A stretch of 64,000 nucleotides of DNA from an uncultured Candidatus Binatia bacterium (GTDB lineage Bacteria > Desulfobacterota > Binatia > Bin18). Position numbers and translations under genes: made by a program. The notes beneath the pieces were generated by a model. It ran no database searches and had not been told where the DNA came from. It saw only the letters and a program-made list of their open reading frames with translations. Where the stretch lies: the NCBI GenBank assembly GCA_965214605.1, contig OZ243961.1, positions 2,624,001 to 2,688,000 of the forward strand, in the 5' to 3' direction. Positions 21,575-38,093 of this stretch are shown here, one piece after another (positions within the stretch are counted from its first letter, which is position 1; every line of letters starts with the position of its first letter).

Positions 21575-22018
21575 GTGCTTGAAACCGTTCTGCTGCTGGC
21601 CGGCTGCGCGCTGTTTGGGGCCGCGGCCGTGTGTGACCTATACAGCCGCTCCATTCCCGACCGGGTGCCGCTCGGGTTGCTGGCGGTGTTTGGCGTGTAT
21701 GCCGCAATCGCCCAGGTGGCCCCGCTGTGGACTCATCTGGTCACCGCCGCGGTTCTGCTGTTGGTCGGCTTTGGCCTGTTCGTCGCCGGCGCGCTTGGCG
21801 GAGGCGACGGCAAGCTGCTGGCCGTTGCCGGCCTGTGGATCGGCCCGTTCGATATCAGTCTGTTTCTGGTCGGCATGGGACTGCTCAGTCTCGGCCTTGG
21901 CCTATTCAGCCTACTGCCGTTTGCCGTCACCCGCCGATTGCGGTCGAATCTCCCACTGGCGTTGGCCATTGCCCCACCGGCCGTTGTCGTGTTGACATCG
22001 CGCGCCTTTTTCGCCTGA
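21575..22018 (+). CDS. cpaA: Flp prepilin peptidase (A24, TadV/CpaA)
   Basis: Hydrophobic; DLYSRSIPD and GGGDGKLL catalytic Asp motifs; adjacent to cpaB. Confidence 0.85.
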   Translation: MLETVLLLAGCALFGAAAVCDLYSRSIPDRVPLGLLAVFGVYAAIAQVAPLWTHLVTAAVLLLVGFGLFVAGALGGGDGKLLAVAGLWIGPFDISLFLVGMGLLSLGLGLFSLLPFAVTRRLRSNLPLALAIAPPAVVVLTSRAFFA

Positions 22019-22025
22019 GACGCCT

Positions 22026-22895
22026 ATGCGACGCTATCGTTCCGTGCTCCTGATCGTGCTCCTGGTGATCGTCCCGATCAGCGCTCTAGCAGTCAGCGTG
22101 TGGCTGTATTTGGGCCAGCCGGACGAGACGGAGGGGGAACCGCCGCCTCCGCCGCCTCCGCCGCCTCCGCCGCCGCTGGTCGATGTGTGGGCCGCAGCCG
22201 GTGACCTGGATGTCGGCGTCCTGCTTGTCGCCGACGATATTACCACTGTCCCGCTTGAGGCCGAGGCCATCTTTCCAAACTACCTACGGCAGGACCAGAT
22301 TGATATGTCGGAGGTGGCCGGCTCGGTGGTCCGCACCCCGCTGTTGGCCGGTATGCCGCTCACCTGGGCACAACTGGTGCGGTCCGGCCAGGACGGTTTT
22401 CTGGCTGCGGTCCTTGTCCCCAACCACCGGGCCGTCACCATTACGGTCGATCAGGAGACGAGCCACGCCGGCCTCATCTCGCCGGGCGACCGGGTCGATG
22501 TCATCTTCACCACGCAGACCGACGCCAACGGCCAGCTCAGTACTGTCAGCCGGACGGTCCTGGAGAATATCCGGGTGGTGGCTGTCAACCGGCGGATTGA
22601 GCAGCGCGCCAGCGAAGCCCAATCCCAGGAGGGCGAGGGCGGCCAGCAAGATACCGCACAGACGGTGACGCTCGAAGTGTTGCCCCTAGAGGCCGACCAG
22701 CTCGTGCTGGCCACGAGCCGGGGCAGTCTGTCGCTGGCTCTGCGTCCTCTCAGCCGGGCTGGCGGTTTTGGCCGGCGGCCAGCGGTCGGCGTCACAATGC
22801 TCCTGCAACCGGAAGCGCCGGATCCGGTCCGGGTCCAGATCTACCGTGGCACCAGTCGGGAAGAAGTGCTGATGACCGAAAGGCTCTCTGACTAG
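22026..22895 (+). CDS. cpaB: Flp pilus assembly protein CpaB/RcpC
   Basis: SAF-like region, RAVTITVD...AGLISPGDRVDVI, TVTLEV, GSLSLALR. Confidence 0.9.
   Translation: MRRYRSVLLIVLLVIVPISALAVSVWLYLGQPDETEGEPPPPPPPPPPPPLVDVWAAAGDLDVGVLLVADDITTVPLEAEAIFPNYLRQDQIDMSEVAGSVVRTPLLAGMPLTWAQLVRSGQDGFLAAVLVPNHRAVTITVDQETSHAGLISPGDRVDVIFTTQTDANGQLSTVSRTVLENIRVVAVNRRIEQRASEAQSQEGEGGQQDTAQTVTLEVLPLEADQLVLATSRGSLSLALRPLSRAGGFGRRPAVGVTMLLQPEAPDPVRVQIYRGTSREEVLMTERLSD
22140..22175 (+). repeat. 9-bp tandem repeat encoding a 12-Pro linker in CpaB
   Basis: CCGCCGCCT x3 followed by CCGCCGCCG. Confidence 0.85.
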
Positions 22896-23857
22896 CCGCC
22901 GCTGATGCTGCGTAGCGCATCAAGCGTCATCAAGAAGCTCGGGCCGGCGACCAGGAGAACCGTGCCCGGCGTCACCATCAGCAGCATGGGCATACTCATC
23001 AGCACCGGTAAACGCTCAATCTGGCTGGCGATACGGGCTGCCCGCTGGGCTCGTTCACTGCGGGCAATGTTCTGCATCGACTGGGTGAGCGGCGTACCGT
23101 AGCGCTCGCCCTGGATAATAGTGGTGGCCAGGTCGCGTAAACCCTCTACTTCAGTCCGGGTGTATAGGTTTTGCAGGACGGTCCTGCGCTCAGCCCCAAT
23201 GCGGAGTTCGGTCTCAACCTGGCCGAACTCCCTGGCCAGATCAGGGGCCAGCGGTACGAGTTCCTGGGCGACTCTGGTCAGGGAGCGCTCAAAGGTGAGA
23301 CCGGATTCAAGACACAGGGACAGCAGGTCGAGGGCATCGGGGAGGGCGGTGACCATTCTGGTGTGCCGGCGAGTTACCAGGTAGCGCAAACCCGTCTCGG
23401 GCATTATTCCGCCAACCACCGCTCCGACCAGCCCGGCTACTACAATCAGCCCCGTATAGCTTCCCAGAAGATCGGTCTGGGCCGCCTGGAAGCCGGCCAG
23501 CAGGCCGCCGGCCAGGGTACCAACGAGCTTGGCGGACATGAACACCGCCAGAGCATCGGTTTGGTGGAAGCCGGCCTTGCGGAGGAGATGATTGAGCTTG
23601 GCGCGCTCGTCGGTCCCGACCGGGACCAGCAGAGAGGCAAACTTGAGTACGCCGACCGAGACTCTCAGATGCAGAGGGCGGCCCGAGGCTTGACGGCGGG
23701 TGCGGGGCTCGGGTTCTCCATAGACCGCCGCTGCCCAGGCCCGTACCTGGCTCAGTCGTCGGTCAAGTACCTGGACGCGGCGGGTTTCCTGCAACACCAG
23801 ACGGACCAGCACGGCGACAATGGGCAGGGCCATAACAAGGGTCAGCAGTATGAGCAT
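22892..23857 (-). CDS. tadC: Tad inner-membrane platform protein TadC
   Basis: LPDALDLLSLCLESGL, QGERYGTPL. Confidence 0.9.
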   Translation of the reverse strand: MLILLTLVMALPIVAVLVRLVLQETRRVQVLDRRLSQVRAWAAAVYGEPEPRTRRQASGRPLHLRVSVGVLKFASLLVPVGTDERAKLNHLLRKAGFHQTDALAVFMSAKLVGTLAGGLLAGFQAAQTDLLGSYTGLIVVAGLVGAVVGGIMPETGLRYLVTRRHTRMVTALPDALDLLSLCLESGLTFERSLTRVAQELVPLAPDLAREFGQVETELRIGAERRTVLQNLYTRTEVEGLRDLATTIIQGERYGTPLTQSMQNIARSERAQRAARIASQIERLPVLMSMPMLLMVTPGTVLLVAGPSFLMTLDALRSISGG

Positions 23858-23871
23858 GCCTCTTCTCCGTC

Positions 23872-24903
23872 TCAGCGGATGACACGGGCGGCCAGATTGC
23901 GGGCAATCAGCAGCCCGACAACTATGAAGCCAATACCGTAACGCAGCAGGCCTGCGCCCGATTCAGTATAGAACAGAGTCTCAACTGCCTTCGGGTTGGT
24001 GAATTTCTGTATCGACAGCACCACTATCGGAAGTATGGCGATGATTATCAGGGTCAGCCGGGTCTGGGCCGTTGCGCTCTGGGCCTTGAGAGCGCTTTCA
24101 CGGCGGGCACGCAGGGTGGCCGACAGATTGGTGAGTGCGCCCGAGATAGCTCCGCCGGTTGTCCGTTGCAGGCAGACGGCGGCGGAAAACAGGGTGAACT
24201 CAGAGATGCGGACACGGGCTGCGGTGCCGCGGATAACTGTCTCTGGGTCAAGTCCGGCATCCGTGCCTTCCTTGATCGCTCCCAACACATTGCTGACCGG
24301 CGGCCGGGCCTCCCCCGCCACAGCGGAGATGGCTTCCGTCGAAGGCAGACCAGCCCGCATGAGGCGCACCACATGGTCTACAGCCTCGGGAAAGATCCGC
24401 AAAAACTCGGCCCGTTGACGGGAGTCTTTGATAGCCAGCACAGAATAGCTGGCTCCCAGCCAGCCGACCAGCGCCAGCAGCAGGCTGAGGACTAGCCCGA
24501 ACCGGGTAAAGAACAGCCCGATAAAGGTCATGACCGCGGCCAGCCCGGCCAGCCCGAGTGCTTTTGGCACGGCTTTGTCGGCCTCCAGCATGGAGAACTT
24601 GTGCTCAATCCGGTCGAGCAGCCAGGAGTTGGCCCGCCGCTGGCGGAAGACGCTGATCTCGACCGTGGCCTCGCCATCGGCTGGAGTCTCGCCACTCAGC
24701 AGGGCGGCCACCCGTCGCAACCGACGGTCAAGTGCCTTGCGCTCTTTGCGGGTATCAAGCCACAGCATGATGACGAGGGATTCGACGAGCAGAGCGGCTA
24801 GAGCGCTGATTATACTCATCAGCACACTGCCGGCCAACGCCAGGGCGACCACTGCCGGGATCAGAACGCCCACGACACAAGCGATAATCAATATCGGGGT
24901 CAT
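23872..24903 (-). CDS. tadB: Tad inner-membrane platform protein TadB
   Basis: [29 protein letters not shown]. Confidence 0.9.
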
Positions 24904-26309
24904 GCCGCAGCCTCCACCTCGTTGCCGCTCTCTTGGAGCACTTCCATGAGTTCGGCCCGTAGGCCCGCGGCCTCAATCGCCTCAATCCAGGAAGGTTGGC
25001 GACCCGTGCCCTCAAACACATGGGCCTCGCCCGGTAGCCGCCTCCACATCTCCTCAGTCGTTACCACCTCGCCCTCTAGCCCGGCCACATCGGTAATACT
25101 GGTCACGCAGCGGTGGCCGGAGCGCAGCCGGGCCATCTGGACGATGACATCGAGGGCCGACACAATCTGCCGACGGATAGCCATTAGCGGCATGTCGGTT
25201 GCGGTCATCATCAGCATGTTCTCAAGCCGCATCAGCGCGTCGCGGGGATTGTTGGCGTGGACCGTACACATTGAACCGGGGTGGCCGGTGTTCATTGCCT
25301 GCAACATTTCGTTGGCTTCTTCGCCCCGGACCTCGCCGACAATGATCCGGTCGGGCCGCATCCGCAAAGCGTTGATCAGCAGCTCCCGGATCGTCACCCG
25401 GCCGGTGCCCTCGCTGCTCACTGTGCGCGTTTCCAGCCGGACGACGTGCGGTTGCTGGAGCTGGAGTTCGGCCGAGTCTTCGATTGTTACCAACCGCTCC
25501 GTATTGTTGATCTCGCGCGACAGGGCGTTCATGAAGGTCGTCTTGCCGGCCCCGGTGCCCCCGGCGATCAGAATGTTCAGGCGGGCTTTGACGCAGATCC
25601 GGAGCAGCTTTGCCATGACTGGGGTAAAGCTCTGACGGTCGGCCATGTCTTCTAGGCCGATGCCCTTGACCACAAAGCGGCGGATTGAGATGGCTGCCCC
25701 GTCGATCGCCAGCGGGGGGATGATAATATTGACTCGGCTGCCGTCGGGCAGACGGGCGTCCACCATCGGGCTGGCCTCGTCCACTCGTCGGCCAACCCAG
25801 CCGGCGATGCGCTGGGCAATGTTCAACAGGTGTTGCTCGTCGCGAAACCTGATGTCGACCTGCTCCAGCTTGCCCCGACGTTCGATATAGACCGATTTGG
25901 TGCCGTTAACCAGGATGTCGGAGATATGTGGGTCACTGAACAGCGGCTCCAACGGACCGAGCCCCTTGATGTCGTCCACTAACCGGTTGACGACCTTCTG
26001 GCGGTCAAGCGGAGTCAGGTCGGAGGCAACAGAATCCTCAGTATCGAGAAAGGCCCGGAGCTGAACAGCCAGGTCGTCACGGTCCAGCTCAGCCGCCTTG
26101 GCCATGTCAAGGTTCTCGACAATGACCGGGTGCAGCTTGGTTGCCATGTCGGCGATCAAGGTCGAGGCGGTCCGGGTGCGGACCGGGGCGATGGATTCGA
26201 CCGGCTCGGCAACCGTCGGCGCTTCGCGGCGGTCCTGGGGTGCTTCGCGGTGTTTCGGGGCCGGCTTTTTGGCTGCCTTGGGGCGGCGTCCAAAAGGACT
26301 GCGTGCCAT
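24900..26309 (-). CDS. tadA: Tad assembly ATPase CpaF/TadA
   Basis: [17 protein letters not shown] Walker [31 protein letters not shown]. Confidence 0.95.
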
Positions 26310-26352: not shown

Positions 26353-27492
26353 TCACTCTCGTCCGCTCTCTTCTACCAGCGAGACTGTCTGGTGTATTAA
26401 GGTGTCGGTCAGCTGGCTCAGTGCGGTTCGGTATTTTTTGCTCAGGTTGCGCTCCGGCCAGCCGTGGTTGGTGGCTGTCGGCAGGGCCGGCTCAAATGGT
26501 ATGGTCACGTCGGGGGTACGGCCGGCTAGAGCGTAGCTGATCTCATCCGAGGCCAGCGCGCCTTTCTTTGCCCGGGTGTGGCTCTCGACCAAGATGACCG
26601 GGCGCTCCTTGCCCAGCAGGGCGAGACGATGGACCGCTCGGTTGAGGCTGACCAGGGTCGGTTCATAGACCAGCACCCGATCGTCGGCGTGCTCAAAGAT
26701 GGAGAACAGCGTATCAGTATCGGTCGCGCCGTCTACGATAACGAGGTGCGAGCGGTTGGCAAGCTGCTCGATCAGCCATTGGACCGCGTCGGCGGCCGGT
26801 TGCGGGGGCAGACTGTCGCCGACGCGGTAGCCGTAGACCGAGATGCGGGGCGAGACCGTGGTCCGTACGCCGTCGATCAGGTCTGGGTTGGGCTCGGCAG
26901 TGGCGGCGATCTCAAGGAGTTCTTCCAGACCCTGGGCCGGCTCGACATCGAGCATCAGCGGCAGCGCCCCGGAGGTCCGCTCTAGGTCGAGCGCCGAGAC
27001 ATAGCTGCCCCGGCTGGCCGCGGTCCGGGTTGTCACCGCGGCCAGGGTTGTGGCTCCACTCCCGCCGCAACTAGCAAAGGCGATGACCCGCCCGGCATAC
27101 AGCCGGGCCGGACCGTCGTCGTTTTTGAGGGCGGTTGTCACCGCGTCGTGAATATCGTTGACGGTCACCGGCTTAGGCAGGTAGTCGCTGACCCCGTAGG
27201 CGAGCAGTTCACGGGTGAAGCGGGCGGTGTCGTTGGAACTGATGGCTACTACCAGGGTCCCCAGCTCGCATACGCCCGCCAACTCGTGGATACGGCCGGT
27301 GGGGAACTCGCTGCCATCGAGATCGACGAATATCAACCGGGGCGAAGCGGCGGTGGCCAGGGTCTTGATAGCCGCTGTAATATCGCTGCGCTGCACCTGC
27401 GCGCCGCGGCCGGCCAGGGCCTCGCTTAGGACTTTTTCGGTTGCCGCATCTACGGCAAAGGCGCGGATCTCGTTATTGTCTGTGGCTTCCAT
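26353..27492 (-). CDS. tadZ: CpaE/TadZ (atypical receiver plus MinD-like ATPase)
   Basis: Receiver-like N-terminus (GVSDYLPKP); degenerate Walker A CGGSGATT. Confidence 0.8.
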   Translation of the reverse strand: MEATDNNEIRAFAVDAATEKVLSEALAGRGAQVQRSDITAAIKTLATAASPRLIFVDLDGSEFPTGRIHELAGVCELGTLVVAISSNDTARFTRELLAYGVSDYLPKPVTVNDIHDAVTTALKNDDGPARLYAGRVIAFASCGGSGATTLAAVTTRTAASRGSYVSALDLERTSGALPLMLDVEPAQGLEELLEIAATAEPNPDLIDGVRTTVSPRISVYGYRVGDSLPPQPAADAVQWLIEQLANRSHLVIVDGATDTDTLFSIFEHADDRVLVYEPTLVSLNRAVHRLALLGKERPVILVESHTRAKKGALASDEISYALAGRTPDVTIPFEPALPTATNHGWPERNLSKKYRTALSQLTDTLIHQTVSLVEESGRE

Positions 27493-27828: not shown

Positions 27829-28122
27829 CTACTCGTCAATGACCATGGTTGCGACCTCGGGCAGTTCCTTGGCCTCGTCATTTGACCAGCGGCTGTAGGC
27901 CCCGGAGACCGAGCCGTGGGCATCTTTCGGCCGACCGCCGGCCGCGGCCTTCACATTCCTGTTCCGTACGGTCTCGGCAGTATCAATCAGGTGCTGGGCT
28001 TCTTCGAGTTTGACGAGGACGGAACGGCTTGACGGAAGGGTGGTGCGGTCAAGGGCCAGCGGCAGCACCGCGCAGCCTGTGGCGGCAAGGGTCAGACAGA
28101 GGGCCGGAATTATAGACGTCAT
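27829..28122 (-). CDS. Small lipoprotein in tad operon (CpaD/RcpB-like position)
   Basis: Lipobox ATGC; lies between secretin and tadZ. Confidence 0.55.
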   Translation of the reverse strand: MTSIIPALCLTLAATGCAVLPLALDRTTLPSSRSVLVKLEEAQHLIDTAETVRNRNVKAAAGGRPKDAHGSVSGAYSRWSNDEAKELPEVATMVIDE

Positions 28123-28169
28123 GTGCCTTTTCCTCATTTTGGTGCATAAGGCCGGCATACTCTCTCCAT

Positions 28170-30101
28170 CTAATAATAATAGCCTCGGAGGCGAAGGCCG
28201 GTAGTCGGCTGCTCACGATTTTCGGCCAGCGGTATGCTTGTGGCATCGGTCAGCCGGGCGGTGACAACGATGATGAGTTCGGTGGCGTTGGAGCGGACCG
28301 AACGGCTGCCGAATAGTAGATTGACGAAGGGAATGTCTTTGAGAAGCGGCATGCCGGATTCGCGCGATTCGCTCTGGTCACGGTACAGGCCGGCGATGAC
28401 GATGGACTCGCCGTTCCCGACCTCAACGGTGGTCTCGGCCCGCCGGCCGTCAATGACCGGAATATCCAGCCCTTCGGCCCGGAGCGATTCGGTCTCGGAG
28501 CGTTGCGAGACCTCGGAACGGACGGTCAGGACGATCCGTCCGGCGTTTACCACGGTCGGCACGAAGTCGAGCAGTACGCCGAATTTCTTGTAGACGAAGG
28601 TAATCGCGCCGTCCCTAAAGCCGGCCGGAAGCGGAAACTCGCCGCCGGAAAAAAAGCTGGCGGTTTCGCCGGAGATGGCGGTCAGGCTGGGCCGGGCCAG
28701 AATGCTGACGAGGCCGGCGGTGGCCAGGGCGTCAAGCAGAGCGGTGACCCGGGTGCCGTTAATGAACTGGCTTGTGCCCAGGGCGACGGCTTCGCCGCCG
28801 GGTAGAATAGCCCGTACGAGCGTGCCGGTCTCCTCGTCAATAAAGTTGAAGCGGCCGATCTGGAAGCCGGTGAAGCCTCCCGGTCGGTGGGGTTCGATAG
28901 CTTCCCAGTTGATGCCCAGGGCTTCACTGACGCTGCGGCTCATCTCGGCGATCTGGACCTCAAGGTTGACCTGTTGTGCGCCCGAGACGACGAGTCGGTT
29001 GGTGACCGGAACCTCGTCGGGCAGGGCGGCCGCGGCCAGCCGGACGGCTAGGTCGGCCTGGGCTGAGGAGGTCACCTCGCCGCTGAGTTCAACCCCTTTG
29101 CTGAGCTGGCGTACACTGACATCCTTGAGTTCTTGTGTGCCTTCCAGGGCGCTCTGTACCGGGCCGACATCAATCACGGTGGCCACGGTCCAGGCGGCGA
29201 TCATCTCGCCGGCGGCGTCAAGTGCGGCGACTGAGGTACGGCCAATGGCTTTGCCGACAAGGTGGAGGATGCTGGGGGAGACGAGACTAACGTCGGCGAT
29301 GTCGGGATCACCGACAAAAATGGATCCGGCCGTGGTGTCAAGGCGGAGGAGGTGGCTATGGCCGAGGGGTAGGGTGAGGAGGGGGGCGGAAGGGGGCGAT
29401 TGTAGACGAGTGGCAGTGGGCTGGGCTGGTTGCGCCGGGGTCTGGGAAATCTGGGGCGGTTGTGGGTTTGGCCGGGCGGTTTGCCTCTCTCCTTGATCCT
29501 CTCTCTGGGGGAGCAGAACAGGGGCTTGAGAGTGGGTTTTTGCAGTCTGTTCTTCCTCCTGGGTTGACCGCTCACTGGTCATGGGTCCCTTGTTTTTTTG
29601 CATGTCGAGCACGATCTTGGTCATGCTGCCCTGGCGTAGAGGGAAGGTGTGCAGGTGGTAGTCGCCGGTGAGGGTAGCGGTGAGGGTGCGGCCGTCAGGA
29701 GCAAGGACGACTTCGCTAATGTATGCGCCGAGGTACTGTCGGACCTGCTCAAGACTGGTGTTCATCCGGCGATCGAACTCCACGGTCAGGAGTCTGTCGT
29801 CTATGCCGGCGGTGTAGCCGACGGCTTGAGGCCAGTCAAAGACGATGCGGCCGTAGTCGTCATGCGCCCAGGCACGGATGATGACCTGCTCGGCGGTCTG
29901 TCTCTCTCTCCGGCCCTCCTCCTCAAGGGAGGGAGGGACTGCTTGTGGCTGATCGGTCGATCCGAGGTCTGCCGGCTGAGCGCAAGCGGGTCTGTCGCCC
30001 CCCACCGATAGCGAAAGGGCGACAAGGGTTCCGCATGTGAGCTTGAGTATTGGCTGTAGCGCATCAAACACTGTGCCTGAGTACCCTACAGCCTGAAACA
30101 C
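28170..30101 (-). CDS. rcpA: Tad secretin CpaC/RcpA with extra N-terminal domain
   Basis: IFVGDPDIADV, BON-like region, QVNLEVQIAEMSR, SGETASFFSGGEFP, LKDIPFVNLLF; exact start uncertain. Confidence 0.9.
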   Translation of the reverse strand: MFQAVGYSGTVFDALQPILKLTCGTLVALSLSVGGDRPACAQPADLGSTDQPQAVPPSLEEEGRRERQTAEQVIIRAWAHDDYGRIVFDWPQAVGYTAGIDDRLLTVEFDRRMNTSLEQVRQYLGAYISEVVLAPDGRTLTATLTGDYHLHTFPLRQGSMTKIVLDMQKNKGPMTSERSTQEEEQTAKTHSQAPVLLPQREDQGERQTARPNPQPPQISQTPAQPAQPTATRLQSPPSAPLLTLPLGHSHLLRLDTTAGSIFVGDPDIADVSLVSPSILHLVGKAIGRTSVAALDAAGEMIAAWTVATVIDVGPVQSALEGTQELKDVSVRQLSKGVELSGEVTSSAQADLAVRLAAAALPDEVPVTNRLVVSGAQQVNLEVQIAEMSRSVSEALGINWEAIEPHRPGGFTGFQIGRFNFIDEETGTLVRAILPGGEAVALGTSQFINGTRVTALLDALATAGLVSILARPSLTAISGETASFFSGGEFPLPAGFRDGAITFVYKKFGVLLDFVPTVVNAGRIVLTVRSEVSQRSETESLRAEGLDIPVIDGRRAETTVEVGNGESIVIAGLYRDQSESRESGMPLLKDIPFVNLLFGSRSVRSNATELIIVVTARLTDATSIPLAENREQPTTGLRLRGYYY

Positions 30102-30149
30102 AATCAGGCAACGATGCCCGGATATCCGTGCCTAGACGCTTGGTTTCCA

Positions 30150-30179
30150 GCAGCACCAAATGGTATCATTTGGTGCTGC
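30150..30179. terminator. 13-bp hairpin between flp and rcpA (attenuator or mRNA stabiliser)
   Basis: GCAGCACCAAATG-GTAT-CATTTGGTGCTGC perfect inverted repeat. Confidence 0.55.
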
Positions 30180-30248
30180 CACTGTCGGCAGTATCGGGAT
30201 TTAGATCAGAAGCAGTAGGGCAACGCGGTTTAATCGTTGCCGCCCCGA

Positions 30249-30485
30249 CTAGTCAGCAGTATCGGGCCCTAGATCAGTAACAGTAGGTGCCGTGATATCG
30301 ACCGTCCCCAGACTCTCCCCTATGTTGTCTAGCAGAAGATCCATATCTTCGACAAATGTCGCCACCCCTGCTCCTATGCCCGCAACGACTACTCCCGTCA
30401 GAATCGCGTATTCGATGGCAGAGACGGCTTTGGTGTTGCGCAGATAGTGGCGGAATTCCTTCGTGTAGTGTCTGAGTGTAGTCAT
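30249..30485 (-). CDS. flp: Flp family type IVc pilin
   Basis: 78 aa; basic leader, then VSAIEYAILTGVVVAGI; strong AGGAG RBS. Confidence 0.85.
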   Translation of the reverse strand: MTTLRHYTKEFRHYLRNTKAVSAIEYAILTGVVVAGIGAGVATFVEDMDLLLDNIGESLGTVDITAPTVTDLGPDTAD

Positions 30486-30622
30486 GGTCTTTCTCCTTTC
30501 CTGGAGGGTTAAGGTTTATCGTATCGTACGGCTGGGTTGCATTTCCAATGGCATTCAGTGCATGGAGTCCTCCTGATCGGTTTGGGCTGGTAGTTGTCCC
30601 GTTTGTTGTTCATGGCTCTGTT

Positions 30623-32170
30623 CTAGTAGATACGACGGAAGCGCTTCAGCTGTCGGCCGATTTTGCGAAAGGCTTCTTCTAGTTCCTCGTTCGTGGTGTT
30701 ATTGATAAAAACATAAGTGCCCTCCGGGTCGTCGGCTTGACTTGAGCACCGCTCTAGGTGAACCCCCAAATTGTCGTCTGGATTCTTGTCGTCTGCTATC
30801 CGGCTTGGGTCCATAGCCGCAATGGTAAACACCTTGATGCCGGCGGCCTTGGCTTCGCTACACGCCCTTTGTCGATGTGCCACCACAGTCTTACGAAGGA
30901 GATGGCTGTCATCGCCGTCAGTAAGCAGGATGAGGGCTTTCTGGACGTGTCGTCGTGCCGACGGGTCTATGGGGTGAATCTGGTCGCCCCACACGGATCG
31001 CCAGGCAGGTGCCAGCAGCCGGTGTCCCCAAACCACGCCGAGTGTCGAATAGGTGGCCGCCCCACCCGGACCGAGTCCCCGGATTGCGGCCTTGATTGTG
31101 TTGGTATCGGTTGTCAGTGGTATAATTGGGGGGAGGGTGCAGTCGTACTGGGGAGTTTCGAATCTGAATCGACTCTTATCAATATTGTTGGGGTTGCTAT
31201 AGCACACGTCCCGTGGTTTATGGTCCACATGACACTCGAAATTAACGCTATGGTCTTTTGGATAGTTTATAGTTGGGGAATAAAACCCCATCATAAATGG
31301 CGCCTGCGTAGGTAGCACCGTTGAAAGGCCAGGCGGAGTCGTACCGATCGGTAGGGGGAGTTCAGGAATAGTACGCTGGTCGGGACAGCCTTGCCACTCC
31401 TCATCCGGTGCCGGGAGCATATGCGTTTCGCCGGTGGTGCTGTCCGGGTAGGGGTTGGGGTAGTAGCGCTCGGTCGGGTAGAAGGCCCAGCCGTTGTCTT
31501 CCCAACGCTGCGCCATCGCGGAGTCGAAACGCACGCGGTAGTGCCAGGGAACCAGTCCGATGGCAGCCGAATCGTCGCTGCCGTTGTTCAAGAGGTCGAC
31601 CAGCTCCAGGGCGGCCCGCTTCACAATAGCCATCTTATTATCACTCGAACGGCGGCCCTGGAGATCATATGCCATTGAGCTGGTGGAATCAATCGCCAGG
31701 GCGACCTCGGTCAGCCTGTTGATCTGCTCAAAGCCACTGCGGGCCGCGGACGCGGTATCCAGGTCGTCCCACAGCCATCTTCCAAAGACGACCCCGCCGA
31801 GATCCGCTTGGGCTCGGACGCCGGCCGTGCCTGCGGTGCAGTCGTGGGTGATGGCGATCTCTAGGGTTTCGTTGGCTTTGGCACGTTTGCCCTCGGGCAG
31901 GTTGGCCAGGATGTAGCGTCTGGCTATTGGTTGTAGGACGGTGTTGATCTGGGCGTTGGTCATGGTATTGCAGTTGAAATCGTCCAGGGTGTTCATCAGA
32001 GCAACGCCGGCTGAGTCGGAGGCGACCTGGAGGAGGTCACGCTGGTAGGTCAGATGGTGGTGGTCGCCGACGAGGGCGATGCCGGCCAGGCTCATTAGGG
32101 TCAACATGACCGCGCTGATGGCGGTGCCGGCAGCGTGGGTGTTGTACAGAAATTTTCTGAAGAGTGTCAC
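30623..32170 (-). CDS. tadG: TadG-like pseudopilin/adhesin with VWA domain
   Basis: N-terminal TM, LQVASDSA, MIDAS DSTSSM, LLTDG, GIKVFTI. Confidence 0.85.
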   Translation of the reverse strand: MTLFRKFLYNTHAAGTAISAVMLTLMSLAGIALVGDHHHLTYQRDLLQVASDSAGVALMNTLDDFNCNTMTNAQINTVLQPIARRYILANLPEGKRAKANETLEIAITHDCTAGTAGVRAQADLGGVVFGRWLWDDLDTASAARSGFEQINRLTEVALAIDSTSSMAYDLQGRRSSDNKMAIVKRAALELVDLLNNGSDDSAAIGLVPWHYRVRFDSAMAQRWEDNGWAFYPTERYYPNPYPDSTTGETHMLPAPDEEWQGCPDQRTIPELPLPIGTTPPGLSTVLPTQAPFMMGFYSPTINYPKDHSVNFECHVDHKPRDVCYSNPNNIDKSRFRFETPQYDCTLPPIIPLTTDTNTIKAAIRGLGPGGAATYSTLGVVWGHRLLAPAWRSVWGDQIHPIDPSARRHVQKALILLTDGDDSHLLRKTVVAHRQRACSEAKAAGIKVFTIAAMDPSRIADDKNPDDNLGVHLERCSSQADDPEGTYVFINNTTNEELEEAFRKIGRQLKRFRRIY

Positions 32171-32218
32171 CTGGGTGTGTTTTTCTTCTATTTGCCCTCT
32201 CTCCTCAGGGAGAGAGGA

Positions 32219-32758
32219 TCATACCGGGGCCGGAGGCACGGTGTCGACGCGGACCGGCAGGATGTGGTGCTGGTAAACGAAGTCGTCGTCCTGGCGGATG
32301 CACACTTCGGCGACGATGACGACTTCGCCGGCCTGTATCGCCAATTCGGTTGGCAGGACGGCGTCGGTCCCGGTATTGCCAACTTTGCCACAGTTCGCAA
32401 TGTCGTCGTCGCTGGCGGCGTTTGTGCCGAATAAATCTTGTCTGGCCCACAGTACGGTGGGAGCGTCGTTTCCCGATGCTTTTTGGACCGCTGAAGTCAC
32501 GAAGGCGGCGAGCGAAGGGCTGATCTGGTGGTTGTACAGATACTGGCTCAGGTCTCTGATGTAGTTGGCAACCGGCATGGCTTCCTGGCTGACGTATTCG
32601 GCCATGGTGACTGCGGAGTGGGCGGTCCTGGCCTGGGCGGTGGACAGCCGGTACAAGTCAAGGGTGAGAACGGAAGCGGTAAGCAGGACCACCGTGCCAA
32701 GGGCGCATTCAAGGGCGGCCGAACCGCTGTCCGATGTGCCGAAGGAGCTTCTTTTCAT
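32219..32758 (-). CDS. TadF/TadE-like pseudopilin
   Basis: GSAALE followed by a hydrophobic helix; VIVAEV. Confidence 0.75.
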   Translation of the reverse strand: MKRSSFGTSDSGSAALECALGTVVLLTASVLTLDLYRLSTAQARTAHSAVTMAEYVSQEAMPVANYIRDLSQYLYNHQISPSLAAFVTSAVQKASGNDAPTVLWARQDLFGTNAASDDDIANCGKVGNTGTDAVLPTELAIQAGEVVIVAEVCIRQDDDFVYQHHILPVRVDTVPPAPV

Positions 32759-33321
32759 CAGGCGTCCTCCCAGAGACGTTCGTTGCGCATGACTGTCATG
32801 ACGGTCAGGCCCCTCTCGTCGACGAGGCGCCGTTGGGCCCAGGCCAGGACGGCCGTTTGCGGCTTCAGGGTCATCGCGACGACTACGATGTCTTTGGCGT
32901 CGCCACCGAGGTTCGCGTTCTCGCCCTGCGACAAATTGCCGGCCAGCATATCGGACGGGTTGTCGTAAACCCTAACCTGAATGGTGAGGCAGAAGTCGGC
33001 TAGGGCTTCGTCGCCTTCCGGATCGGTGCATTTCCCGTCAGCGCTGTCCGCTAGCTTGAAGCTGATCCTGTTGCCGATCTCGGCCGCGATTGCCTCCAGG
33101 CATTGAGTTCGCATGACCGCCTCATTGGGGGCCGCGGTGTCTGACAGGGCGTTGTGACGGGCCACCCGGTTGGCCGCCCGCTGAAGCAGGTCACCGACAA
33201 GCAGGGTGCTCGCAATCTCGAACACACCGGCCAGGGAGACGGTGAGAAAAGAGGCTGCCAGACAGCTTTCAAGCGCGACCGCCGCCCGTTGAGAAGCCAG
33301 AAATCGCTTTATTCCGAACAT
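32758..33321 (-). CDS. TadE-like pseudopilin
   Basis: AAVALE plus hydrophobic helix, LQRAANRVAR, GGDAKDIVV, MRNE. Confidence 0.75.
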   Translation of the reverse strand: MFGIKRFLASQRAAVALESCLAASFLTVSLAGVFEIASTLLVGDLLQRAANRVARHNALSDTAAPNEAVMRTQCLEAIAAEIGNRISFKLADSADGKCTDPEGDEALADFCLTIQVRVYDNPSDMLAGNLSQGENANLGGDAKDIVVVAMTLKPQTAVLAWAQRRLVDERGLTVMTVMRNERLWEDA

Positions 33322-33338
33322 GGTTGCGGTTCTCTTTA

Positions 33339-35216
33339 CTATTCGTGGCGGTCCAACCCGGACTCTGTTCTGGTAGACAGCGTAATTCGTACCATTGTTC
33401 CCTGGCCTGGCAATGAGTTCACCGCGATGCTTCCGCCGTATTTCTGGGCAAGATACTGGGCCAAGGTGAGTCCCATCCCCATTGCATCCTCTCTCGACGT
33501 ATAGAAGGGGCTGAAGACCTTCTTGCGGTTCTCGGGTGTAATACCGATCCCGTTGTCGGTGATAGTGACCAAGATTTCTTCGCCCTCTTCTCTCGTCTCA
33601 AGCCGTATGACCCCTGTTTTTTTTCCTTTTTCTTGCACTGCCCACACGGCATTCTCAATAACATTTGTCAACAGCAGATATATTTCCGATCCGAGTGCCA
33701 ACATTTCTGGAATCGGGTTCAGCTCTTTGACGACTAGGGCCTGCGTCTCTGCCCCGGTGCTGTCCACTATCTCTCTGATGGGGCCATTGAGGTCGATTAG
33801 GGTGTAGGCCTCCTCATGTTTCTCGGAAAAAGCTGGCAGGCGGTTCGCAAGGGCGACAATATCCTCTGTCTGGGCGCGTATGCTCGATACCACTGCGGCT
33901 GCGGTTTTGATCTCTTCTTCGGCCGCGGTCTGCGGCTCTGCGGACTCGAACTCCTCTTCGGTTCGTTCCCGCTCGTCGCCCGCTCTCGGCATGGGCGTTA
34001 TTGCGGTGAGCAGCTTCTTTTGCATGTCGCCAAGGATGTCCATGCTGCTGTTGATTCGTTCGGCAACGGTCGTCAACAGCTTGGCTACGACCTCAAGTCC
34101 AACCCCGTGCAACGCGGTTTCGGTGGCTGGGGCCGGGCTCTTTCCACTGGCTTGCTCCTCGGCTTGGAGAAGGTCAGCAGTCAGCTTCACTAGTTCTTTG
34201 GCCCCTTCGGAGTGTTGCGCCGGTACGTCAGACGGCGGTACGGATGCGGACTCTTCTTCTTGACCGGCGTCCTTTTCGACGTTTGTCTGTTGTAGGAGTA
34301 CGGGGACGTTCGCCGGCGATACGGCCGTCACACCGGCGTCTGGGGCCGCAGCCACCCGCTCGGCATCCCGCCGTCTGCTCCCGGGTATTTGCAGGGCGAT
34401 GGCCAACCACATCACCCACAAGGCTCCTCCTGCTCCCAGTATGCCGCGTTCATAATAGCTGGCGAGTGTCTCTTTCTTGATTCTCTGGGATTCCAGATCG
34501 TTGATCAGGCTCTCTCCGAGGTCGCTCACTCTGCTTGAAGTAGCCTCTTGAAACGTTTCTTCTGTCGGTTCTCGTTTGTCGAGCAACACTTGTCCGTGGG
34601 CGACGAAATTCGCAATTGTTTTGGCGATATCCGGGTGGCGCGCAACGATGCTGTCCCCTAGCTCTTCCAGCGCTCTCCTCAGACGTTTTTTTTCCGGGGG
34701 AGCCGGGGTTGCGAGATAGGTGTTGATCTCGTCGGTGACGCTTGAAATGTTGCGGACAAACGCCGGCTCACCGCCTTCCTCCTGCACTTGCTGCATCACA
34801 CTCGCTGCGGCCAGCGGCAGATAGCGAAGGGAATTGCGCAGGACCGCATAGCCCATCTTGAAGCGCTCAATCCGTTCTTCTTTGGCGTCAAGGGCACTGA
34901 GATAGGCGTTGAGGTCGTTGCCCAGCTTCTCCGGGAGGTCGGGGATGCCCAGCATCGTCTCCAGCAGATCATCCTTGAGCCGCTCCATCCGGGGGATGAA
35001 GGTGATCAGTCCGTCAAAATCAGCCATTGAGTCGGCCCTGACCCGTGCGGTCTCAATACTCCATTGGGACTCGATCTGGCTGATCTGTCGAATGAGGGAA
35101 ATGGCGAGCTGGTAGTTTCCTTGCCTGATGCTGTTGGCCATCCAGTACAGCCCCGCCGCAATCGCGATGAGGGCTACTGAGAGGAAGACGCCAATGGTAA
35201 TGGATTTGGATTTCAT
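33339..35216 (-). CDS. DAHL-type periplasmic sensor with HATPase domain; no recognisable H-box His
   Basis: Two TM segments flanking a helical domain (KEERIERFK...VLRNSLRYLP, FVAHGQVLL); NVIENA, DNGIGI, FSPFYT, GMGLTL. Confidence 0.8.
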   Translation of the reverse strand: MKSKSITIGVFLSVALIAIAAGLYWMANSIRQGNYQLAISLIRQISQIESQWSIETARVRADSMADFDGLITFIPRMERLKDDLLETMLGIPDLPEKLGNDLNAYLSALDAKEERIERFKMGYAVLRNSLRYLPLAAASVMQQVQEEGGEPAFVRNISSVTDEINTYLATPAPPEKKRLRRALEELGDSIVARHPDIAKTIANFVAHGQVLLDKREPTEETFQEATSSRVSDLGESLINDLESQRIKKETLASYYERGILGAGGALWVMWLAIALQIPGSRRRDAERVAAAPDAGVTAVSPANVPVLLQQTNVEKDAGQEEESASVPPSDVPAQHSEGAKELVKLTADLLQAEEQASGKSPAPATETALHGVGLEVVAKLLTTVAERINSSMDILGDMQKKLLTAITPMPRAGDERERTEEEFESAEPQTAAEEEIKTAAAVVSSIRAQTEDIVALANRLPAFSEKHEEAYTLIDLNGPIREIVDSTGAETQALVVKELNPIPEMLALGSEIYLLLTNVIENAVWAVQEKGKKTGVIRLETREEGEEILVTITDNGIGITPENRKKVFSPFYTSREDAMGMGLTLAQYLAQKYGGSIAVNSLPGQGTMVRITLSTRTESGLDRHE

Positions 35217-35240
35217 GGTAATAATTCCCGAGCGGCAACC

Positions 35241-36467
35241 TTATCGCTGACCGGACTCCTCTCCCTTTTCGTAGCTGCGGACGTATGCTGAGTCAGCAGC
35301 AGGGCTCCCCCGAAATCTTCCCCCTTTGCCATAGCTTTTGCGGACATATGCTGAGCTATCAGCCGTAGGGAGACCTTGACGGGACTTTCCCCCTTTGCCG
35401 TAGCTTTTGCGGGAAGGCGTTTGGTCTCTTTCCTCTTCAGCTTGAGGGGCAGGAGTGTCGCTCCCAACAGTCTCTTGCGGCAATTCCGGCGCCAAGGTTT
35501 TGATAAACGTGACAATTGCGTCTTTGTGTTCACCCGGCGCTTCTCGTCCTAACTGAAACTCGAACATGGCATCGACCGCATCGCGCAAGGTCTCCGCGCT
35601 TCCGTCGTGAAGATAAGGGGCGGTATGGGCGGCCATCCGCAGGCTCGGCACCTTGAACGCATGGCGGTCGGCCTCGTTTCCCGTCACGTTGAAGCGCCCC
35701 AAGTCGGCGGTAGTGATGTTGCCCCGCTTTTTGAAGTAATCATTGATGACGCCGAACACCTGAAACATATTGCCGCCCACGGCTGCCCCCTGGTGGCATG
35801 ACACGCAGCCATAGCGTTTAAACAAGGCGTAGCCCCGTTTTTCCTGTCCGTTGAGGGCCGAGTCATCGCCTTTGAGCCAGCGGTCGAATCGACTGTCGGG
35901 CGTGGTCAGGGAACGCATAAATTGGGCAAGGGCGTCCTTGATGTTCTGGCGGTTAATGCTGTCTGGATAAATCTGCTGGAACAGTCCGGGATAGTCTTCG
36001 TCCTGGAAGAGTTTGCTTACGACATCCGGCCAGATACTTCCCATCTCAATAGGGCTCTGTATCGGTCCATCGACCTGCTCTTCGAGCGTATGGGCGCGCC
36101 CGTCCCAGAACTGTTTGAAGTTGAAACCGGAGTTGAACACGGTCGGCGCGTTCACTACGCTGGACTGTCCCTCAACCCCGACAGAAAGGGTCAGTCCGTC
36201 ATCCCCGCCGGAACTGAGATCGTGGCAACTTGCGCACGAGACGGAGTTGTCTTTCGATAATCTCGTGTCGTGGAACAACCGCCTTCCCAGCTCTACTTTC
36301 GCTGCGTCCACCTCGACCTCCGGCGGAACCGGCCTGATTGGCTCTGCGGCGTCTGTCCGGGGAAGAAGGGAGAATACGCAGACGATGGCGACTACTCCCA
36401 TCCCTGTCAGCCGATGGCCTAGCGCCCAGCCGACTATTCGGGTTGCGCTCTTTTGAGTGATCTTCAT
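35241..36467 (-). CDS. Di-haem cytochrome c peroxidase family protein
   Basis: LGRRLFHDTRLS, CASCH, FWDGRA, PIEMG, CVSCH, FKVPSLR, PYLHDG. Confidence 0.9.
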   Translation of the reverse strand: MKITQKSATRIVGWALGHRLTGMGVVAIVCVFSLLPRTDAAEPIRPVPPEVEVDAAKVELGRRLFHDTRLSKDNSVSCASCHDLSSGGDDGLTLSVGVEGQSSVVNAPTVFNSGFNFKQFWDGRAHTLEEQVDGPIQSPIEMGSIWPDVVSKLFQDEDYPGLFQQIYPDSINRQNIKDALAQFMRSLTTPDSRFDRWLKGDDSALNGQEKRGYALFKRYGCVSCHQGAAVGGNMFQVFGVINDYFKKRGNITTADLGRFNVTGNEADRHAFKVPSLRMAAHTAPYLHDGSAETLRDAVDAMFEFQLGREAPGEHKDAIVTFIKTLAPELPQETVGSDTPAPQAEEERDQTPSRKSYGKGGKSRQGLPTADSSAYVRKSYGKGGRFRGSPAADSAYVRSYEKGEESGQR

Positions 36468-37210
36468 GGTTCCTTCGTGTCGTCCTGCTGGGTCTCGCTG
36501 TTTTCGATGAGCCGCATCAGTTCGGCTCTGTCGCCCTCTCCCCAGTAGGAGACGTTGTGATTGGAATAGAGCTTCCTTGCTTCCTCAGTGCGTCCTGCCT
36601 CGACGAGCATCCGCACCAGATTAGCGGTGATCGTAGGATGCGGGGCCGATGCCAGCGCCTCGTCGTAATACTCTTTCGCCCGCACGTAATCGCCCTCAAG
36701 GCTTGCCACTACGGCCAGACCGTTGGCCGCCCAGGACGCCACGGCGCCATCGGCCAGCTCGGCGGCGGCGAGGAAGTGGGTCTTGGCCTGAGCAAGGTCT
36801 TCGCGCCCCAGGCTAGCCCGCCCGGCGCCGAGCAGCGCTTCGGCCTTCATGGCCGGCTGTGTCGCCAAGGTGCCTGCTTTGGCGAACAGCGCGTCAGCCG
36901 CGTCAAAGTCCCCCGACTGCAAGGCCATATAGGCGAGCCCAAGTTTCGGCTCAGGCGCGCTCGGGAAGCTGCGGGAAAGATTTTCGTACAGCCGCCCTGC
37001 GGCAACCGGCTGGCCGGTTTCAATCGCCGCCGCAGATACCTCTAGACTGCTCTGTAATACCTGTTGTTGGGCTGGACTGAGCCGGCCTTGTTCGTTCCCG
37101 CCCGGGAGCTGACTGCAAGCGCTCAGGGACGCTACAAGGACTGCTGCCGTCCAGCTGCAATCATCAAAGCTCATAAGAGTCCTACAACCAATGTAAGTAT
37201 ATGCATACAT
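36464..37210 (-). CDS. tadD: TadD-like TPR lipoprotein (pilotin)
   Basis: Lipobox LSAC and TPR-like repeats (NGLAVVASLEGDYVRA); start uncertain; stop overlaps the peroxidase ATG. Confidence 0.7.
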   Translation of the reverse strand: MYAYTYIGCRTLMSFDDCSWTAAVLVASLSACSQLPGGNEQGRLSPAQQQVLQSSLEVSAAAIETGQPVAAGRLYENLSRSFPSAPEPKLGLAYMALQSGDFDAADALFAKAGTLATQPAMKAEALLGAGRASLGREDLAQAKTHFLAAAELADGAVASWAANGLAVVASLEGDYVRAKEYYDEALASAPHPTITANLVRMLVEAGRTEEARKLYSNHNVSYWGEGDRAELMRLIENSETQQDDTKEP

Positions 37211-37315
37211 GCAGATTGTCTGTCAAGTATTTTTTGGAGCTTGTGATAAAAAAGTTCAGAAATAACACGATCTTAACTGATTGATATGAGAATATTTTCT
37301 GATGGAAATAAATTT

Positions 37316-37382
37316 TTCTACTCAAGCAGAGACCTCTTGCATACATGCTGCATGTATGCAAGAGGTCTCTGCTTGAGTAGAA
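37316..37382. repeat. Perfect 67-bp palindrome (33-bp arms, 1-nt centre) in the tadD/tetR divergent promoter
   Basis: TTCTACTCAAGCAGAGACCTCTTGCATACATGC-T-GCATGTATGCAAGAGGTCTCTGCTTGAGTAGAA. Confidence 0.9.
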
Positions 37383-37454: not shown

Positions 37455-38093
37455 ATGACAAAAGCAGGCCAAGCTCAGCAGACCAGAGAAAATCTGATCT
37501 CCGCCGCCCGTGAGTTGTTCGGGAAGTATGGATACGTCGATACAAATACCACAGAGATCGCCCTGCGTGCCGGGACGACCCGGGGGGCACTATACCATCA
37601 CTTCCGTGATAAACTTACCCTCTTTAAGGTAGTCCTCAGTGAGGTCAGAGCCGAATTGGGACAGAAGGTCAGGGATCGCGTACAGCAGGCTGAGGGCGAT
37701 GCCTGGCAGCGGTTCGTCGTGGCCGGCTTCTCGGGTTTTCTTGATTTTGTAGAGGACCCAAACGCGCGGCGTGTTCTTTATCTCGACGGCCCTGGAGTTA
37801 TGGGCCGCGCCCTGTCTCCCGAGGACGAAGGGCCGGGGATGATGGTAATACGCGAAGCCATGAAGGTACTAGTCGACGAGGGCTATATCGAAGAGCAGCC
37901 GCTCGAACCGCTGTGCCGGCTGGTCTGGGGAGTGTTTTTTGAGGCTGGTATTTACATTGCCAGGGCCGACAACAATGAGGTCGCCCAGCAGGAAATTAGC
38001 TTTCTGGTGGAGCGCCTGCTGGGAGGGCTGCGGGTCAAGGCCCAGTCACAGCAACCTTACGAAAAGGACAAGTGGCTGAAGCGGAGGCAGTGA
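37455..38093 (+). CDS. TetR/AcrR family regulator
   Basis: ARELFGKYGY...IALRAGTTRGALYHHFRDK. Confidence 0.92.
   Translation: MTKAGQAQQTRENLISAARELFGKYGYVDTNTTEIALRAGTTRGALYHHFRDKLTLFKVVLSEVRAELGQKVRDRVQQAEGDAWQRFVVAGFSGFLDFVEDPNARRVLYLDGPGVMGRALSPEDEGPGMMVIREAMKVLVDEGYIEEQPLEPLCRLVWGVFFEAGIYIARADNNEVAQQEISFLVERLLGGLRVKAQSQQPYEKDKWLKRRQ

Follow-up and report, generated by a model that had tools for sequence, protein, structure and literature searches.

Why should an operon for pilus assembly contain, in its midst, the genes for a haem peroxidase and a membrane-bound sensor? This question is raised by a 64,000-nucleotide stretch of the genome of an uncultured Candidatus Binatia bacterium (contig OZ243961.1, positions 2,624,001 to 2,688,000; hereafter, the window, whose coordinates are used unless another locus is named), in which the genes for a di-haem cytochrome c peroxidase (ccp) and for a sensor with a DAHL domain lie among the genes of a Tad/Flp pilus. 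To our knowledge, canonical tad loci lack a built-in chemical input, and a full-text literature search, which misses most subscription papers, recovered no published description of a ccp-DAHL pair inside a tad locus. Here, we report that one subfamily of Tad pilus loci has this pair as a conserved component. As judged from the sequences, the system is real and conserved and joins known parts in a new combination, which may form a redox switch acting on the pilus.

A ccp-DAHL pair inside a tad operon

Open reading frames (ORFs) and Pfam matches confirm the minus-strand gene order tadD-ccp-DAHL sensor-tadE-tadE-tadG-flp-rcpA. The genes for the peroxidase (CCP; 35241..36467; Pfam CCP_MauG, E 8.9e-59), which is of the DAHL-partner type, and for the sensor (33339..35216; 625 aa; Pfam DAHL, E 1.1e-28, and HATPase_c) are preceded by tadD (36464..37210), encoding a TadD/CpaO-like lipoprotein with a Pfam TPR match. 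Computed from the sequence, the gaps are -4 bp between tadD and ccp (an ATGA overlap), 24 bp between ccp and the sensor gene, 17 bp between the sensor gene and the first tadE, -1 bp between the two tadE genes, and 48 bp between the second of these and tadG. The junctions around the pair are also spanned by contigs of two other studies: X6 covers tadD/ccp, ccp/DAHL and DAHL/tadE, and X5 covers tadD/ccp and DAHL/tadE. The order and spacing given in a preliminary description of this locus are thus borne out. That description had placed the locus at 28170..37210; its gene content stands and its boundaries do not. The tad genes continue beyond 28170, with orf109, tadZ, tadA, tadB and tadC, down to 22892, and tadD most likely starts at 37174, not at 37210, because a -35 element (TTGACA, 37226-37221) and a ribosome-binding site lie ahead of the former position. 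The host genome (G000, 4.37 Mb) contains a single DAHL match and a single CCP_MauG match, both at this locus.

Conservation of the pair in tad loci

The synteny search proposed in the preliminary description showed that the arrangement is not unique to this genome: it is found in two phyla and two gene orders, with tad genes around the pair in 36 of 53 loci (13 lack tad genes, and 4 are too short to tell). These loci were found from a DAHL alignment in species-representative genomes, a few of them sharing a genome, and are titled as Ca. Binatia/Binatota, Alphaproteobacteria (Defluviicoccus, Rhodospirillales, Thalassobaculaceae) and Gammaproteobacteria, plus one Thermodesulfobacteriota. The ccp gene is directly upstream of the DAHL gene in 51 of the 53, the remainder being a contig that starts inside the DAHL gene and a ccp-DAHL read-through. 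The Binatia architecture, tadD-ccp-DAHL-tadE-tadE-tadG-flp-rcpA, was observed in 12 loci, and two more have ccp-DAHL-tadD-tadE. Another 22 loci, from Alpha- and Gammaproteobacteria, display the order tadZ-tadA-tadB-tadC-ccp-DAHL, often followed by the gene for a dCache-HAMP protein and then tadV-cpaB; here, of the 21 listed junctions between the tadC and ccp ORFs, 20 have a gap of -23 to +19 nt. Metagenomes yielded 14 further loci, of which 13 contain ccp and 9 contain tad genes; a metagenome scan by TadZ alone gave no matches.

The CCPs of these loci fall into a single clade with a long stem (99-100% SH-aLRT in quick trees) and are 70-80% identical across phyla. TadA of the ccp-bearing loci is likewise one clade in FastTree, with 100% support in a tree of 37 rows and 89% against the sister clade, and small subclades match between the TadA and CCP trees. 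We infer that the pilus and the ccp-DAHL pair were inherited and transferred together. Several apparent CCP-DAHL fusions (P0293, P0294, P0297, P0300) and TadC-CCP fusions (P0295, P0313) were discarded as probable artefacts of the kind that read-through or deletion creates where genes overlap; five of the six sequences were read.

Because the 53 loci had been picked by DAHL, a separate search was started from TadZ, which matched in 27 of 251 genomes of the class. Of the 17 other TadZ-positive genomes in the host's family and order, 15 carry DAHL at a distance of 6-14 kb from tadZ, and none of nine TadZ-negative genomes of genus g8 has a DAHL gene (two more TadZ-negative g8 genomes, of ~80% completeness, were left out). 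The two exceptions, G003 and G020, are broken remnants, as are G004 and a second copy in G005; flp, tadE and tadG were not found in any of them. Within this family and order, the pair thus follows the pilus in its presence and absence. Given this pattern and the conservation of the pair in two phyla and two gene orders, a functional tie between the pair and the Tad pilus appears likely and is well supported.

The pairing itself is broader. In the phylum of genome G041, 74 of 401 genomes proved to contain DAHL, and in 29 of the 30 best generic loci ccp adjoins the DAHL gene, the exception being cut by a contig end; the earlier statement that CCP-like genes pair with DAHL elsewhere therefore holds. 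Near such generic pairs on long contigs (11-20 kb fetched), tad genes were found in none of 20 cases, bar one weak ATPase fragment. Pairing of ccp with DAHL is therefore general, and the tad linkage is specific to this clade. Such near-obligate pairing suggests a haem protein as the intermediary by which DAHL domains are read.

The peroxidase

The window CCP (408 aa) has one N-terminal helix, a signal peptide, followed by two CxxCH haem motifs (C78/C81/H82 and C221/C224/H225); the FWDGRA and EM motifs that had been read from the sequence are present as well. Alignment to 1iqc, 3o5c and 1nml placed the axial ligand at M301, the bridging Trp at W121, the catalytic Gln and Glu at Q131 and E141, and the Ca ligands at N106, T282 and P284. 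The haem motifs, axial Met, bridging Trp, catalytic Gln/Glu and Asn/Thr/Pro Ca site are invariant in 52-53 of the 53 clade rows, M301 itself in all 53. At the distal His site of the peroxidatic haem, the window CCP has V98, and all 52 rows with a residue there have I, V or M, which sets the clade apart from classical CCPs. The best solved relative, 9qdt (E 7.9e-88; "Probable cytochrome c peroxidase"), which we take to be YhjA, likewise lacks a distal His; the window CCP aligns from residue 126 of this protein, and the third, N-terminal haem domain with a membrane helix that is typical of YhjA is missing from the window CCP.

YhjA is described, in the part of the source cited here (PMC10301912), as having no distal ligand and as active without reductive activation, and Gln and Glu are given as required for catalysis in a bacterial CCP, NgBCCP (PMC10094543, cited in part). 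Given the replacement of the distal His by V, I or M, reductive activation is probably not needed in this clade, and its CCPs are predicted to be catalytically competent and open to H2O2. Ratios of non-synonymous to synonymous substitution (dN/dS) for the clade CCP are 0.05-0.41. The generic DAHL-partner CCPs lack the distal His in all 29 cases and have lost the catalytic Glu in five of the 29; this loss, and the lack of H2O2 protection by DocA of Campylobacter jejuni (see below), both fit a sensing role.

An identity as MauG or MbnH was rejected on the NCBIfam scores (MauG, 164 bits with a cut-off of 443.85; MbnH, 182.7 with a cut-off of 362.85) and on the axial ligand, which is M301 in the window CCP and Tyr in MauG and MbnH. 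The redox-mobile E-haem loop (residues 239-267) was considered as a specially conserved docking site and abandoned, its conservation being only 0.85 compared with 0.82 overall. The C-terminus of the protein (35241-35480) is a low-complexity tail with two RKSYGKGG repeats, and relatives vary in the number of SRGKGG repeats. A second ccp of the same clade, with no adjoining DAHL gene, was observed at L026:13842-14969, ~4 kb upstream of tadV-cpaB, and at L028:1436-2452.

The sensor

The sensor consists of a transmembrane helix, the DAHL domain (residues 35-255), a second transmembrane helix, a linker, a degenerate DHp region and HATPase_c. The DAHL match (PF19443) scores 100.9 bits against a cut-off of 38, and hydrophobic peaks are centred on residues 5 and 259. 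The domain is modelled as all-helical (pLDDT 92, pTM 0.83) and resembles McpS (E 1.8e-4), PilJ and TorS (3i9y, TM-score 0.64), with TM-scores of 0.49-0.64.

No Pfam HisKA match was obtained for the window sensor, and HisKA annotation or motif is absent from the best 120 of its 449 homologues. The nearest His-bearing DAHL kinases read AHEINTPLGY at the H-box and, when aligned, put the His at K379 of the window sensor, a register that superseded the earlier candidates T382 and E386. In an alignment of 121 rows, in which all three registers were considered, His occupies the K379 position in none, T382 in none and E386 in three. Conversely, the N, G1, F and G2 boxes of the ATP site are kept, with N522, D554, G556, G558, G580 and G582 in 119-120 of the 121 rows; the first G2 Gly is Ala in 114 of the 121, and the first Asn of the N box is variable. 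Across 11-13 overlapping pairs, dN/dS is 0.03-0.55 for DAHL, 0.02-0.48 for the ATP domain and 0.07-0.66 for the DHp-like helices. By these measures, the sensor is a maintained pseudokinase under purifying selection and not a decaying gene. Thus, of the "sensor" named in the preliminary description, the DAHL domain and HATPase_c stand, and the missing H-box His makes the protein a pseudokinase. Lacking a phospho-acceptor His, it cannot autophosphorylate and is therefore not a normal two-component input. His-less relatives are known beyond the loci that were read, so the loss of the His may predate the link with tad.

The only receiver-like domain in the tad locus is the N-terminal one of TadZ/CpaE (26353..27492, minus strand), which keeps D15, D57 and K107-P and has a Pfam E-value of 4.5e-4, below the cut-off; D57 and K107 are kept in 34 of 35 rows. 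Across the clade, TadZ has P-loops of the GCGGSG type, without the signature Lys of distant TadZ proteins (KGG), and several alphaproteobacterial loci contain two tadZ genes.

A possible redox switch, and alternatives

We favour a mechanism in which the periplasmic CCP-DAHL pair controls pilus assembly through binding, without phosphotransfer, and estimate its probability at roughly 0.45. CCP would dock on DAHL, whose conformation would then change with the redox state of the CCP haems, itself dependent on H2O2 and electron supply. The pseudokinase would relay this change by binding, with the receiver-like domain of TadZ/CpaE as the likeliest partner because no other receiver is encoded in the tad locus. 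Adhesion to a host or another surface would thereby be gated under oxidative conditions. These taxa may be linked with sponges. Tad genes are reported as de-selected in one sponge consortium (PMC6374434, cited in part).

That CCP would act through DAHL is indicated by the near-obligate adjacency of their genes, by the action of TorT and apo-TorC on TorS as a precedent, by DocA-DocB and, weakly, by CCP fusions. The last are 18 soluble proteins of ~571 aa (P0325, P0327, P0331-P0357; one named from Pseudohongiella) that have a DAHL-like helical C-terminal domain and no membrane helix. An AlphaFold model of this family (pTM 0.41) leaves the CCP part unfolded and is uninformative on the interface.

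Several observations weigh against such a switch. The loci are related to one another, so their counts are not independent. A sister tad clade (nine f15 genomes with 10 loci, the flp motif being found in 7 of the 10) is apparently intact in genomes that have no DAHL anywhere and no ccp in their tad loci; the pair is therefore dispensable for this pilus type. Upstream of tadE, where the pair is located in Binatia, three f15 loci (L126-L128) carry genes for a His-bearing REC-PAS-PAS kinase and a REC-PAS sigma-54 activator, which suggests that this slot is an exchangeable regulatory cassette in this tad subfamily. Furthermore, 13 of the 53 loci, from Pseudomonadales/Azotimanducaceae, have the pair followed by a gene for a ~400-aa protein and no tad genes; in the five such genomes tested, a different tad clade was found elsewhere. 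The CCPs of these 13 loci are one group (85-92%), and its descent from a tad-linked state is neither favoured nor rejected by an AU test (p 0.51). Tad loci that lack the pair keep the TadZ Asp as well, and a preprint (bioRxiv 10.64898/2026.07.08.737194, cited in part) characterizes TadZ receivers as atypical protein-interaction domains. As for the fusions, Pfam DAHL matched in two of 10 members tested, in one of them above the cut-off; comparison of the fusion domain with this clade's DAHL by hhalign was not significant; and its fold similarity to McpS, PilJ and TorS (Z 9-11.5) is below the caution level for helical bundles. Of the pilus-coupled module in the preliminary description, the functional tie to the pilus stands, and peroxide or redox as the signal, a CCP-DAHL complex, co-transcription and host colonisation stay proposals; the pair is neither required by every related tad locus nor confined to tad loci.

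The best-surviving alternative, which we regard as unlikely, is that the pair is a co-regulated passenger: CCP would clear periplasmic H2O2 upon attachment, sharing a TetR-controlled promoter with the tad genes, and the pseudokinase would signal to a regulator elsewhere instead of to the pilus machine. This would agree with the invariance of all catalytic residues in the clade, with this CCP being the sole one of a host genome that has cytochrome c maturation genes, with the loci that have the pair and no tad genes, and with the promoter motif common to the Binatia-type loci. It is harder to reconcile with the tight coupling of the pair at two different operon positions and its loss whenever the pilus decays, and it leaves the loss of the His unexplained; moreover, no gene for an electron-donor cytochrome or azurin was found by Pfam in the window locus.

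Quite unlikely, in our assessment, is direct binding of small ligands, such as amino acids or host glycans, by DAHL, with CCP only a modulator or chaperone, so that the signal would be chemical and not peroxide. The resemblance of the DAHL model to the ligand-binding domain of McpS and the dCache-HAMP protein without an output domain encoded behind the sensor in many Alpha/Gamma loci speak for this possibility, and Tlp10/DocB is called a multi-ligand, galactose-binding receptor (PMC9769880, cited in part). Direct binding would not, however, explain why a DAHL gene is nearly always accompanied by ccp (in 29 of 30 generic loci and 51 of 53 in the clade).

More improbable still is that nothing is sensed and the pseudokinase is a structural landmark recruiting TadZ/TadA to the assembly site, like PodJ and a recruited kinase in Caulobacter. 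A lost His combined with a conserved fold and ATP site would be expected of a landmark, and CpaE is reported to depend on landmark proteins (bioRxiv 10.64898/2026.07.08.737194, cited in part); neither the invariant haem and catalytic residues of CCP nor the sister loci without the pair would be explained. Finally, a MauG/MbnH-like modifier that oxidises or cross-links pilin or TadG, to which the shared Pfam family and the adjacent pseudopilin genes in Binatia might point, can be dismissed as very improbable in view of the Met axial ligand and sub-threshold NCBIfam scores noted above, the identity of the best solved relatives as peroxidases, and an invariant neighbour that is the DAHL gene and not pilin.

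If the redox switch is real, Tad pili gain a built-in chemical input, and for one bacterial pseudokinase both the input and the target become defined. Although the hosts are uncultured, the parts, being small and soluble domains, lend themselves to expression and testing. A wider generalization, which seems doubtful to us, would make CCP-DAHL a haem co-receptor of general use, built from two proteins and responsive to peroxide or the redox state in the periplasm; one Tad subfamily, moved between Binatota and Pseudomonadota, would have rewired it to a His-less kinase that controls the pilus directly via TadZ, as a switch for adhesion that needs no phosphorylation.

Operon control and the remaining genes

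A promoter of the operon is predicted at 37202..37226 (minus strand), with the -35 element given above, and overlaps a palindromic site of the TetR type. A divergent gene at 37455..38093 (plus strand; Pfam TetR_N and TetR_C_41) encodes a TetR regulator that likely controls the operon. The motif TTGACA(T/G)(A/C)C is located 5' of the first operon gene in 12 of the 14 Binatia-type loci, including the two in which ccp comes first, and tetR is at the same place in 12 of the 14. A simple promoter and terminator scan performed at chance level and missed the tadD promoter. Between tetR and tadD, at 37316-37382, there is a perfect inverted repeat with 33-bp arms and a second copy of the TetR-type site at its centre.

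The remaining genes complete the Tad/Flp set at this locus: flp, tadV, rcpC/cpaB, rcpA, tadZ, tadA-D, tadE/F and tadG. On the minus strand, the sensor gene is followed by two TadE/F-like pseudopilin genes (32758..33321 and 32219..32758). The tadE and tadF labels of the preliminary description are upheld by position and by the N-terminal hydrophobic helix of each protein, and not by family assignment, as neither has a match in Pfam or NCBIfam. Then come TadG (30623..32170; Pfam VWA), the Flp pilin (30249..30485; a 78-aa ORF with the pilin motif AVSAIEYAIL), the RcpA secretin (28170..30101; Pfam Secretin, T2SS-T3SS_pil_N and BON), a conserved small lipoprotein-like ORF with no family (orf109, 27829..28158; 109 aa) and, beyond tadZ, the TadA ATPase (24900..26309), TadB (23872..24903) and TadC (22892..23857), the last two with Pfam matches. 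On the plus strand, converging on these genes, are CpaB/RcpC (22026..22895; TIGR03177 above cut-off) and the TadV prepilin peptidase (21575..22018; Pfam).

A second orf109-tadZ-A-B-C-cpaB-tadV copy, 87-99% identical, lies at positions 1-6400 of contig C5 of the host genome and is probably a strain variant or assembly duplicate. At L030:4433-6514 and L053:18900-21657, a unit of ~550 bp comprising the end of orf109 and the start of tadZ is repeated in tandem between rcpA and tadZ, with four extra copies in L030. A dCache-like membrane protein without a cytoplasmic output domain is encoded in tad loci with and without the pair (L058:11919-13238; f15 loci, e.g. L128:1527-2639). At L073:13647-15587 and in similar Alpha/Gamma loci, cpaB is directly followed by the gene for a conserved protein of ~650 aa that matches no Pfam family. 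The ~400-aa protein behind the His-less sensor in loci without tad genes (L071:11701-12900 and 12 similar loci) has a membrane helix, four invariant Cys and a coiled coil; it matches no Pfam family, and a vWA lead was below threshold.

Comparison with known systems

Classical CCPs (1iqc, 3o5c, 1eb7; NgBCCP) share with the window CCP two haems, the Met ligand, the bridging Trp, Gln/Glu and the Ca site, and differ in the distal His of the peroxidatic haem, which is V, I or M in the window clade. Escherichia coli YhjA is closer in this respect, lacking the distal His and keeping the Trp, Gln, Glu, Met and Ca ligands; unlike YhjA, the window CCP has no third N-terminal haem or membrane anchor domain and is paired with a DAHL sensor.

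Like the DAHL model, the TorS sensor domain consists of two stacked four-helix bundles, and TorS receives its input by way of an accessory protein in the periplasm. Its sensor domain is bound by apo-TorC, a c-type cytochrome, and TorT also acts on TorS (PMC8534201, cited in part). TorS, however, is an active kinase with a response regulator, and at 10% identity the likeness is one of fold and logic only.

Core pilus genes are common to the window locus and the Cpa/Tad system of Caulobacter, whose regulators, in contrast, are located outside the pilus operon and have no haem input. Caulobacter also has a pseudokinase, DivL. CpaE, PodJ and a recruited histidine kinase provide a precedent for kinase-fold proteins at the pilus pole (bioRxiv 10.64898/2026.07.08.737194, cited in part).

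In C. jejuni, as in the window, a CCP gene, docA, is directly upstream of a membrane receptor gene, that of DocB/Tlp10, whose sensor domain we take to be DAHL. The output of the window sensor is a His-less HATPase_c kinase core instead of a chemoreceptor (MCP) domain, and its pair is inside a tad operon. DocA and DocB both affect chick colonisation, and the CCP loci add no H2O2 resistance, according to the part of PMC3156733 cited here. If the pair operates as proposed, it would offer a testable answer to why DocA is needed for colonisation without protecting from peroxide.

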